IMG/VR virus record: IMGVR_UViG_3300032243_000867
Coordinates: 64,001 to 128,000 of that record
Length of the DNA stretch: 64,000 bases
Source of the DNA: a virus
Lineage: Duplodnaviria; Caudoviricetes
Strand: one strand, 5' to 3'
The position numbers were made by a program, and so were the translations under genes. Below, piece by piece: positions 6,412-7,999 of the stretch (the stretch's first letter is position 1; each line of letters starts with the position of its first letter). Under the pieces are notes generated by a model. The model worked only from the letters and a program-made list of their open reading frames with translations. It ran no database searches and was not told the origin of the DNA.

Positions 6412-6885
6412 ATGAGCCCCGAAGCTATCGTCATCGCCATCCTCGCCCTGTTCCCCCACATGAGCGGGAACAACCGCCGCTGCATCGAGACGCAGCAAGA
6501 CCGCATCGTCCAACAGCTTCGTGAGGTATCCCAGCCCTACGAGCCCGGTGCGCCCGTGCCCCCGGTGGAGCTCACCGCTGCCGTTGCCTTCGCGGAGACA
6601 CACCTTGGGTGCGACATCAACGAAGGGGGCAACTGGGGTGCGCCCATCGACCCGCAGCACCGTCACACCGCCGGGACGCATATGCACGCCGTCCGCGCCC
6701 TGTCCCGTGGCTACCAGCGGTGCGGGGATTGGGACGGGGCCATCCTTCGGTTCCGCACGGGGCTCTGCAACCCCCGGCGCAGCCCGTCGGAGCGGGTACG
6801 CGAGCAGGGCGCGCACTACCTCCGGGTGATTCACCGCATCGTGGAGCGGGTTCGTCGGCACGCCGAAGAAGTACACGGCGAGTGA
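6412..6885 (+). CDS. Putative lytic-transglycosylase-like (SLT/lysozyme fold) protein
   Basis: Hydrophobic N-terminus, LTAAVAFAET (candidate catalytic Glu) and AILRFRTG...HYLRVI pattern. Confidence 0.45.
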   Translation: MSPEAIVIAILALFPHMSGNNRRCIETQQDRIVQQLREVSQPYEPGAPVPPVELTAAVAFAETHLGCDINEGGNWGAPIDPQHRHTAGTHMHAVRALSRGYQRCGDWDGAILRFRTGLCNPRRSPSERVREQGAHYLRVIHRIVERVRRHAEEVHGE

Positions 6886-7052
6886 CCCGGAACAACCTTC
6901 CGCGTATCCTCCGGGGCGGCAGCGGGTTCAGCCTAGAGACGGTGCCCGTTCGCGCGGCGACTCGCTACACGGTCGGGCCTTTGGTTTTGTACGACAGCGT
7001 CGGGTTTCGGTGTGGGTTGCGGGGCAGACAACCCGTGGGGGCTAAACCGTGA
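6882..7052 (+). CDS. Mini-ORF 1 (56 aa): FGE/CLec C-terminal (DGR VR-like) segment
   Basis: MTRNNLPRILRGGSGFSLETVPVRAATRYTVGPLVLYDSVGFRCGLRGRQPVGAKP; GTGA overlap with the upstream stop. Confidence 0.65.
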   Translation: MTRNNLPRILRGGSGFSLETVPVRAATRYTVGPLVLYDSVGFRCGLRGRQPVGAKP

Positions 7053-7210
7053 GCTTCGACAAGACTATGGTCGTCATCCGAGGCGGTAGCTGGGGGGATT
7101 CCCCGGAAATCTTCGCCCGTGCGACCTTCGATTCCGCGTACTCGCCCGTGACCCGCTACGAGTGCTTCGGGTTCCGCACCCCCCTTCCAGCCCGTCAGCC
7201 ACGGGCGTAA
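7049..7210 (+). CDS. Mini-ORF 2 (53 aa): FGE/CLec C-terminal segment
   Basis: MSFDKTMVVIRGGSWGDSPEIFARATFDSAYSPVTRYECFGFRTPLPARQPRA; GTGA-coupled; absent from the ORF track (<60 aa). Confidence 0.65.
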   Translation: MSFDKTMVVIRGGSWGDSPEIFARATFDSAYSPVTRYECFGFRTPLPARQPRA

Positions 7211-7218
7211 GTACCCGT

Positions 7219-7401
7219 ATGAACCCCCCCACCACCAAACCCACCTCCGACACCCTTCACCGCGTCTACCGCGGCGGCAGTTGGTGCAGCGGACCGTCGT
7301 TGGTACGCGCGGCTCGCAGCGCGGTCGTGCCTGCGTTCCGGTACAGCATCATCGGCTTCCGTTGCGCGCTGCGGGGATGTGAGAGGAAGGTGAAGCCGTG
7401 A
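7219..7401 (+). CDS. Mini-ORF 3 (60 aa): FGE/CLec C-terminal segment
   Basis: MNPPTTKPTSDTLHRVYRGGSWCSGPSLVRAARSAVVPAFRYSIIGFRCALRGCERKVKP. Confidence 0.7.
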   Translation: MNPPTTKPTSDTLHRVYRGGSWCSGPSLVRAARSAVVPAFRYSIIGFRCALRGCERKVKP

Positions 7402-7571
7402 GTGAGTCCAAGACCGACACCCGTTACCTCGTCTTCCGCGGCGGCGGTAGCTGGTACAGCTGTGGGCCGTCGAGGGTGCGCGCGGCCATTCGCAACGCGG
7501 ACGAGCCTGCGTACCGTGACGACAACCTGGGGTTTCGGTGCGCGCTGCGGGGAAGGGAACCACGGGCGTAA
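7398..7571 (+). CDS. Mini-ORF 4 (57 aa): FGE/CLec C-terminal segment
   Basis: MSESKTDTRYLVFRGGGSWYSCGPSRVRAAIRNADEPAYRDDNLGFRCALRGREPRA; GTGA-coupled; absent from the ORF track. Confidence 0.7.
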   Translation: MSESKTDTRYLVFRGGGSWYSCGPSRVRAAIRNADEPAYRDDNLGFRCALRGREPRA

Positions 7572-7579
7572 GTACCTAT

Positions 7580-7999
7580 ATGGACGACGACACTCTCAAG
7601 CAGTTCCTCCGATGGCGCGGTGTCCGCAACCCCTGCCCCAAGTGCAACGGGCGCGGCTGCTACCAGTACAGCAGCGGGGCGACGTGGCGCGGCGGCATGG
7701 GCACGGCATCCTACGAGTGGGACGTGTGCGACGTGTGCTGGGGCACGGGCGACGAATCCCGCACGGGCGTGGACCTCCGCAAGCAGCGAGACGAGTTCAA
7801 CGCCACCGTGGCGTTGGAAGCTGGGAAGCACCTGTCGCGGTTCGTCGGCGGCATCGGTGAAACGCGCCCCGCCATCGGGGCCATCGCGGACGAACTGGAC
7901 CGCCTTGCACGGGGCCGGAAGGATCGCCCCCGTCACTTTTACACGTTGGTGGGCTACATCGCGGACAAGGTGCGGGACATGGCGAAGGTGCCGACGTGA
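7580..7999 (+). CDS. Hypothetical protein with DnaJ-type CxxCxGxG zinc motifs
   Basis: CPKCNGRG and CDVCWGTG; ATG 5 nt after the GGGCG-TAAGTA motif. Confidence 0.65.
   Translation: MDDDTLKQFLRWRGVRNPCPKCNGRGCYQYSSGATWRGGMGTASYEWDVCDVCWGTGDESRTGVDLRKQRDEFNATVALEAGKHLSRFVGGIGETRPAIGAIADELDRLARGRKDRPRHFYTLVGYIADKVRDMAKVPT

Follow-up and report, generated by a model that had tools for sequence, protein, structure and literature searches.

Free-standing mini-genes of a freshwater jumbo phage carry variable regions that fit a bacterial diversity-generating retroelement

Why should a phage encode, several times in succession, only the last piece of a protein domain? The question is raised by a 64,000-nucleotide stretch of DNA (the window), bases 64,001-128,000 of the IMG/VR contig G000 (265,895 bp, 64% G+C), whose terminase, portal and head protease genes identify it as phage. 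Four consecutive plus-strand open reading frames (ORFs) of 53-60 aa, here called W1 to W4, form two pairs in the window, with a GTGA stop-start overlap at both the W1/W2 and the W3/W4 junction, and W2 and W4 both close with PRA-stop inside a 17-nt repeat that is identical in the two places (Table 1). A first-pass annotation of the window had described this arrangement correctly, including the standalone nature of all four small coupled ORFs, and had taken them for pieces of the variable region (VR) of a diversity-generating retroelement (DGR). The reading that we favour, with a confidence slightly better than even, is that the mini-genes encode split lectin subunits that would complete a scaffold protein of the same phage, and that a DGR foreign to the phage, most likely that of its host, would supply or rewrite their variable parts in trans.

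Domain searches agreed with the view that each ORF encodes a VR-type C-terminal segment of the FGE/C-type lectin (CLec) fold. W1 to W4 all match the Pfam FGE-sulfatase profile PF03781 (length 255) at profile positions ~207-254 only, with E-values of 0.21, 2.3e-4, 6.2e-5 and 9.4e-6, respectively. The score of W4 (25.9 bits) lies above the gathering score of 23.3 bits, and those of W3 (23.2), W2 (21.4) and W1 (11.7) lie below it; a complete domain (~1-255) in one polypeptide is found in none of the four. The annotation had named descent from a single decayed FGE gene as one finding that would undo its proposal. This origin can be ruled out because the four ORFs all align to one and the same portion of the domain and are therefore not consecutive pieces of one gene.

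The template was found by scanning a degenerate pattern of the VR framework over three collections. Matches came only from related phage contigs and from one bacterial metagenome-assembled genome (MAG), 'uncultured delta proteobacterium KT_bin-2017'. A 2.47-kb contig of this MAG carries what its sequence identifies as a canonical DGR, comprising a reverse transcriptase (RT) ORF (RVT_1, E 3e-14), a template repeat (TR) of 118 nt directly after it, and a convergent, complete FGE target gene. The translated TR has Asn at every variable position and reads ...RGGSWNNNEPSW...RNTNEPANRNNN...GFRCA. The VR of the convergent gene mismatches it at 16 of 26 adenines and at 4 of 92 other sites. A caspase-FGE protein encoded on another contig of the MAG is a remote second target of the same TR, with mismatches at 14 of 26 adenines and 3 of 92 other sites. 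The annotation had considered a TR elsewhere in the phage genome; instead, the only matching TR that we found adjoins an RT in this bacterial MAG.

Measured against the bacterial TR, the phage copies show the expected pattern of adenine mutagenesis. In a codon alignment of 14 copies with a GFRC tail, framework codons are near-invariant even at third positions, and the approximately ten hypervariable codons have the form NNC, most often AAC. The ratio of non-synonymous to synonymous change (pN/pS) is 1.84 in codons that contain a TR adenine versus 0.32 in framework codons. W3 is mismatched at 15 of 24 adenines and 8 of 88 other sites, with two 3-nt deletions, and W4 at 14 of 26 and 11 of 92, with one 3-nt insertion. 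For W1 the corresponding counts are 16/24 and 15/88, with 14 gap columns, and for W2 they are 15/24 and 28/90, so that a cognate TR with mismatches concentrated at its adenines is seen for W3 and W4 and not cleanly for W1 and W2. The adenine bias had been claimed from a comparison of W3 with W4 only, where 11 of 13 mismatches at first and second codon positions appeared to involve an adenine. Across the whole codon alignment the signal between these two is weaker (22 of 31 mismatches at positions 1-2 involve A, and 15 more mismatches lie at third positions), and the enrichment is far stronger against the TR.

The pattern extends to the mini-gene family as a whole. Pooled over 52 cassettes from phage contigs, 779 of 1339 TR adenines (58%) versus 276 of 4769 other sites (5.8%) are mismatched, and the changes at adenines are A>T (355), A>G (327) and A>C (97). 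Two copies, one at genome position 261,509 (numbered on the phage contig) and one on contig L124, are the closest to the TR, with mismatches at 11 of 26 adenines and 0 of 91 other sites, and at 18 of 26 and 0 of 92, respectively. The best phage copies have 0-2 non-adenine mismatches to the TR, compared with 3-4 of 92 for the MAG's own VRs. On this sequence evidence the cores of W3 and W4, together with at least 11 sister copies, classify as DGR variable regions. From the mismatch counts, W3 and W4 are assigned as aged members of the TR-cognate class and W1 and W2 as diverged ones, the latter apparently older and fixed. The label of VR-derived peptide accordingly suits W3 and W4, which fit the TR, better than the diverged, stable W1 and W2.

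If the mini-genes encode only the end of a domain, the remainder has to be sought elsewhere. A genome search using a profile built from the mini-gene copies returned at least 25 cassettes, nearly all of them linked to a neighbour through an ATGA or GTGA overlap. By Pfam search, the phage genome has a single copy of the N-terminal four-fifths of the FGE domain, in a 289-aa ORF that lies ~73 kb from W1-W4, counted across the circular junction. This scaffold ends in GNVWEWTSTVHK-stop, six residues past GNVWEW, and the stop codon shares bases with the start of a 58-aa mini-gene carrying the missing segment, behind which come five more mini-genes. The annotation had assumed that the peptides had no N-terminal scaffold, an assumption at odds with this VR-less ORF and with the prediction, described below, that W4 completes it. 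The division between scaffold and mini-gene is kept in five related phages, and the junction is spelled ATGA, GTGA or TAGTGA. Such varied spelling points to selection for the split itself and argues against a conserved frameshift site; a programmed frameshift joining scaffold and mini-gene was rejected, as the junction has no conserved slippery site. The gene upstream of W1 (157/177 aa) was considered as a second scaffold and rejected, having no FGE match and only a weak TPR match.

Some further members of the family were seen alongside these. A GFRT-tailed four-gene array (genome 5006-5641) is 93-99% identical to its orthologs in the related contigs G001 and L124 and does not fit the TR; by its sequence this array represents a branch of the family that is stable and not diversified. 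The related contig G003 has a second split scaffold of the FGE type at ~26,536 (locus L024 region), with GNVWEWCDSLYYR-stop at its end and GTGA-coupled mini-genes behind it. For the N-terminal ~120 residues of the 289-aa scaffold, an Atlas search returned nothing useful on function.

Structure prediction supports the idea that W4 completes the scaffold fold in trans. The modelled complex of scaffold residues 105-289 with W4 scored 0.94, versus 0.00 for the best of three controls; of 78 solved complexes 51 attain this level, as do 2 of 108 mismatched pairs. The predicted interface comprises ~200 contacts spanning W4 residues 9-52. Each mini-protein would by this mechanism complete the single VR-less scaffold, and one scaffold could then bear many alternative binding tips at once.

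A different use of the same parts is familiar from silent-cassette antigenic variation. Neisseria pilE/pilS and Borrelia vlsE share with this phage the arrays of partial variable segments near one constant-part gene. By analogy, only the copy recombined beside the scaffold would be expressed. The position of five TR-cognate copies directly downstream of the scaffold would suit such switching, as would the variable copy number in relatives and contig joints of roughly unit length (skipping 176-217 nt or returning 173 nt; see below). In this phage, by contrast, each cassette has its own start, stop and translational coupling, and the constant-part gene is devoid of any variable segment. Every phage copy has a start codon placed either in an exact stop-start overlap or behind the short sequence signal GGGCGTAA, none of the five relatives has the scaffold ORF joined to a VR, and dispersed arrays such as W1-W4 sit in other transcription units. 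We regard silent switching as very improbable, and the suggestion in the annotation that the segments serve as recombination cassettes fits poorly for the same reason, since each copy has its own start codon and coupling.

The variation in the cassettes calls for a source. No RT, Avd or TR beyond chance matches was found in the phage genome or its three relatives by Pfam (RVT_1 and bAvd), by blastn of the TR or by tblastn with six DGR RTs; the annotation had seen no RT or TR in the window, and none was found there. Every phage-contig cassette has at least ten adenine-site changes, so none of the cassettes is itself a TR. The genome, a freshwater jumbo phage of ~266 kb, is probably circular or circularly permuted and essentially complete, because related viral contigs (three in number) are colinear with the whole contig and its two ends map side by side in one of them. 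G001 covers ~1-173 kb, and G003 covers ~173-261.5 kb and then runs into 10.5-13 kb. The CheckV completeness of 59% looks like an underestimate, and we rejected it as a sign of an RT in a missing part on the same grounds of colinearity with G001 and G003 and adjoining ends. The assembly break of each genome is, moreover, spanned in another genome, and no RT lies at that place.

A phage without RT, Avd and TR could also have inherited its variation. The cassettes could be leftovers of a lost phage DGR, or pieces of a host target captured once and then amplified, shuffled since then by recombination between copies only and no longer diversified at present. The indels and the 8-11 non-adenine mismatches of W3 and W4 are compatible with this history, as are the non-adenine divergence of the cassettes, which is continuous from 0 to ~18, and the unit-length joints in contigs, which indicate recombination between copies. 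Three comparisons speak against it. Phage lineages with 7-30% backbone divergence all retain copies within 0-2 of 92 non-adenine sites of one bacterial TR. Of 1969 non-adenine third codon positions in the phage VRs, 150 (7.6%) depart from the TR, compared with 148 of 484 terminase third positions (31%) that differ between the phage and G001. Finally, W3 is strongly different between two phages (this phage and that of contig L128) whose W1 and W2 are 96-99% identical. Such relics are in our judgement unlikely, if a serious contender.

Comparison with the relatives suggests recent exchange with the template. Identity between the phage and L128 is 93.7% in the upstream gene, 98.8% in W1 and 96.4% in W2, and 80.9% in the W3 VR; the L128 ortholog of W3 lies 1/92 from the TR. 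The phage scaffold is 39% identical in protein sequence to the MAG target, versus 94-100% agreement of the phage VRs with the TR at non-adenine sites. Array size also changes, with four mini-genes here and seven in both G001 and L128, and the annotation had anticipated that copy number would vary among related phages. Among Logan contigs from four freshwater runs, long ones contain W1, W2 and the flanks, and the W3-W4 stretch is broken up into short unitigs with the joints mentioned above; these are assembled contigs, so the fragmentation could reflect paralogs or population variants. Because of the closeness of VRs to TR, the divergence of W3, the change in array size and the contig joints, repeated overwriting from the TR, or recombination with host VRs, appears to fit better than simple descent.

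Which organism could supply the template is suggested by the relatives of the MAG RT. Sequences 64-73% identical to it belong to Polyangiales, Polyangiaceae or Sandaracinaceae by the names of the contigs that carry them, which are as long as 606 kb. The three related loci inspected contain bAvd, an RT and a convergent target with a TIR_2-Pkinase-FGE, a Pkinase-FGE or an FGE domain alone. The TRs of these related Polyangiales DGRs differ from the MAG TR at 19-28 of 91 non-adenine sites, so the phage cassettes match one particular TR lineage. We infer that the phage host is a bacterium with the matching DGR, in keeping with the Polyangiales-like RT relatives. Adenine-specific mutagenic reverse transcription of a TR outside the phage would then have produced the diversity of the TR-cognate cores. 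Since the matching TR and RT lie in the MAG, and the relatives of this RT sit on Polyangiales chromosomes, the host DGR would most likely supply or rewrite the phage copies in trans during infection, or they would be acquired through recombination with host VRs.

Homing in trans has a precedent in the laboratory. A plasmid-borne avd-TR-brt can home into the VR of a replicating phage without a copy of its own, and requires the downstream initiation of mutagenic homing (IMH) element and hairpin (PMC3240598); in those experiments the donors were plasmids and the native DGR of the phage had been deleted. Most phage cassettes have a GC-rich end after the VR followed by a hairpin (5-bp stem, 7-nt loop), which is imperfect in W4 and absent in W3.

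Several observations weigh against trans-diversification of a split lectin. The cassette hairpin is unlike the described phage DGR hairpins, which have 7-10 bp stems and GRNA loops (PMC3240598). W3 and W4 have indels and 9-12% non-adenine divergence from the TR, and may have ceased to serve as targets for homing. Freshwater or lakes are the source of both the MAG contig and the phage, but no run or study is shared among the listed holders of the two; no phage DNA was found in the MAG, and its 2.5-kb contig could be mis-binned. A DGR cassette could conceivably also sit exactly where the phage assembly breaks, since repeats are common break points in assemblies. The high score of the complex may owe something to intact FGE folds with which the model is already familiar. 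With respect to expression, no RNA run is among the runs that contain the locus, and the stable mini-genes have a pooled pN/pS of 0.50 (36 synonymous and 52 non-synonymous changes), which indicates moderate selection only.

The last two points bear on whether the mini-genes are expressed at all. The ORFs could be untranslated DNA, open only because AAC-based mutagenesis cannot make stops and the DNA is GC-rich. The missing RNA runs would sit well with this view, and alternative frames at W1-W4 are likewise long and open, as befits GC-rich DNA. It would leave unexplained the starts, overlaps and split point conserved in relatives, the purifying trend of the stable members and their 93-99% identity to orthologs, and the strong complementation prediction, and we find it scarcely credible. 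Frames are intact in all copies, and the mini-genes are presumably translated, W1 and W2 by coupling to the upstream gene and W3 and W4 behind their own GGGCGTAA signal. Complementation in cells, homing in trans and a ligand for the assembled lectin are likewise presumed.

What purpose such a protein might serve is suggested by the targets of the bacterial DGRs. FGE-linked DGR targets have been proposed as antigen sensors of multicellular bacteria (PMC10907252), and the caspase-FGE protein of the MAG, with its Peptidase_C14 domain, resembles the sensor-effector of a conflict system. The phage mini-proteins, with or without their scaffold, could on this basis copy the variable sensor tip of host caspase-FGE or TIR-kinase-FGE proteins and disturb sensing, for instance as soluble decoy receptors or by poisoning the folding of the sensors. 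The annotation had raised a decoy role, to which the cognate DGR that diversifies a caspase-FGE protein and the related DGRs that target TIR_2-Pkinase-FGE proteins lend some colour. The phage's own conserved scaffold nevertheless suggests a self-contained two-part protein, random diversification alone would not mirror host specificities, and a foreign strand is unlikely to be accepted by intact host domains. Mimicry of this kind is in our estimate improbable; it concerns purpose, and would be compatible with trans-diversification.

The most far-reaching form of the trans-diversification proposal would have the RT-less jumbo phage employ the chromosomal DGR of a myxobacterial host to rewrite its ~25 VR-only mini-genes. 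The result would be a many-headed split lectin that shares the sequence space of the host's sensors and serves in adsorption or as decoy receptors. We put this forward as a tentative extension that may well be wrong.

Comparison with known DGRs shows where the phage system agrees and where it departs. Treponema TvpA is an FGE-type C-type lectin target of a DGR. With FGE-type targets in general the phage cassettes share the C-terminal RGGSW...GFR VR at the 3' end of an ORF, NNC codons derived from TR AAC codons, and mismatches at adenines; they differ in that the VR is a separate gene of 53-60 aa, in ~25 copies per scaffold, on a genome without RT, Avd or TR. Myxobacterial and Thiohalocapsa DGRs with FGE-type targets have been described (PMC10907252), and remote targets diversified in trans occur within one bacterial genome (PMC5758913; PMC10907252). 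The phage VRs are similar in that they agree with a TR outside its adenines despite their distance from any RT; the difference is that a phage genome carries the VRs and a bacterial genome the TR. A literature search, which was not exhaustive, found no report of natural VR/TR pairing across genomes, nor of a phage dependent on its host's DGR. Bordetella phage BPP-1 likewise has DGR-made variation in a CLec-fold binding tip (the Mtd tail-fibre tip), but possesses its own avd-TR-brt and one VR fused to Mtd, neither of which holds for this phage.

To our knowledge, DGRs are the only natural machines for targeted protein hypermutation, and the targets that we know of are single genes with the VR fused to the scaffold and with RT and TR in the same genome. 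In the literature searched (not exhaustively), a VR as its own mini-gene, ~25 of them per scaffold, and an RT-less phage with VRs that fit a bacterial TR are undescribed. If the proposal is correct, the format is modular, one scaffold serving many separately encoded tips, and would provide more specificities per cell at small coding cost; it could inspire split-display engineering. The virus would possibly depend on a host diversifier, which would couple phage variation to the diversification of proposed immune sensors. Surveys that require a VR beside an RT will miss such targets (PMC8144416).

Table 1. Positions of the mini-genes, their neighbours and related features (window coordinates unless stated otherwise)
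Feature	Position	Strand	Description
GGGCGTAA	6396-6403	+	8 nt before ATG at 6412 (gene coupled to W1)
157-aa gene upstream of W1	6412-6885	+	ATG at 6412; GTGA-coupled to W1
W1	6882-7052	+	56 aa, GTG start; diverged FGE C-terminal segment (RGGSGF ... GFRCG)
W2	7049-7210	+	53 aa; FGE C-terminal segment, GFRT tail
17-nt repeat, copy 1	7199-7215	+	contains W2 stop and GGGCGTAA, 8 nt before W3 ATG
GGGCGTAA	7203-7210 and 7564-7571		inside the two 17-nt repeat copies, before W3 and before the next gene
W3	7219-7401	+	60 aa, ATG start; leader, DGR-type VR (~7258-7369), tail ending KVKP
W4	7398-7571	+	57 aa; leader, DGR-type VR (~7425-7545), tail LRGREPRA
17-nt repeat, copy 2	7560-7576	+	contains W4 stop and GGGCGTAA, 8 nt before the next gene's ATG
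Gene after W4	7580-7999		139-aa Cys-rich protein; weak zinc-ribbon / DnaJ CXXCXGXG-like matches
FGE scaffold ORF	genome 263,930-264,799	-	289 aa; PF03781 positions 12-193
Cassettes by genome position	5.0-5.6 kb (4); 36.9 kb; 41.7-42.1 kb (2); 70.9-71.6 kb (W1-W4)		
Cassettes by genome position, continued	252.2 kb; 254.0-255.0 kb (3); 261.3-262.1 kb (4); 262.9-263.9 kb (6)		
Caspase-FGE protein	L129 4287-5999, contig C407 of MAG G004	-	571 aa; N-terminal Peptidase_C14, C-terminal FGE

The signal GGGCGTAA occurs 50 times in the genome, compared with ~10 copies expected, and mostly lies 7-9 nt before the ATG or GTG start of an ORF with at least 40 aa. The copy ahead of the upstream gene is probably the promoter or start signal of the unit formed by that gene, W1 and W2. 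A promoter role specific to the 17-nt repeat was considered and rejected, as its 13-nt core occurs only twice in the window and the shorter GGGCGTAA is a genome-wide signal. Many copies of the signal read GGGCGTAACGT, which fits a TANNNT -10 box positioned for leaderless transcripts.

Two minor differences between relatives were noted within and beside the array. W2 is polymorphic in length (window 7131-7160), with 12 nt omitted in three freshwater runs and 24 nt absent in L128. The gene for the Cys-rich protein that follows W4 is absent from this place in L128, where three further mini-genes are found instead.

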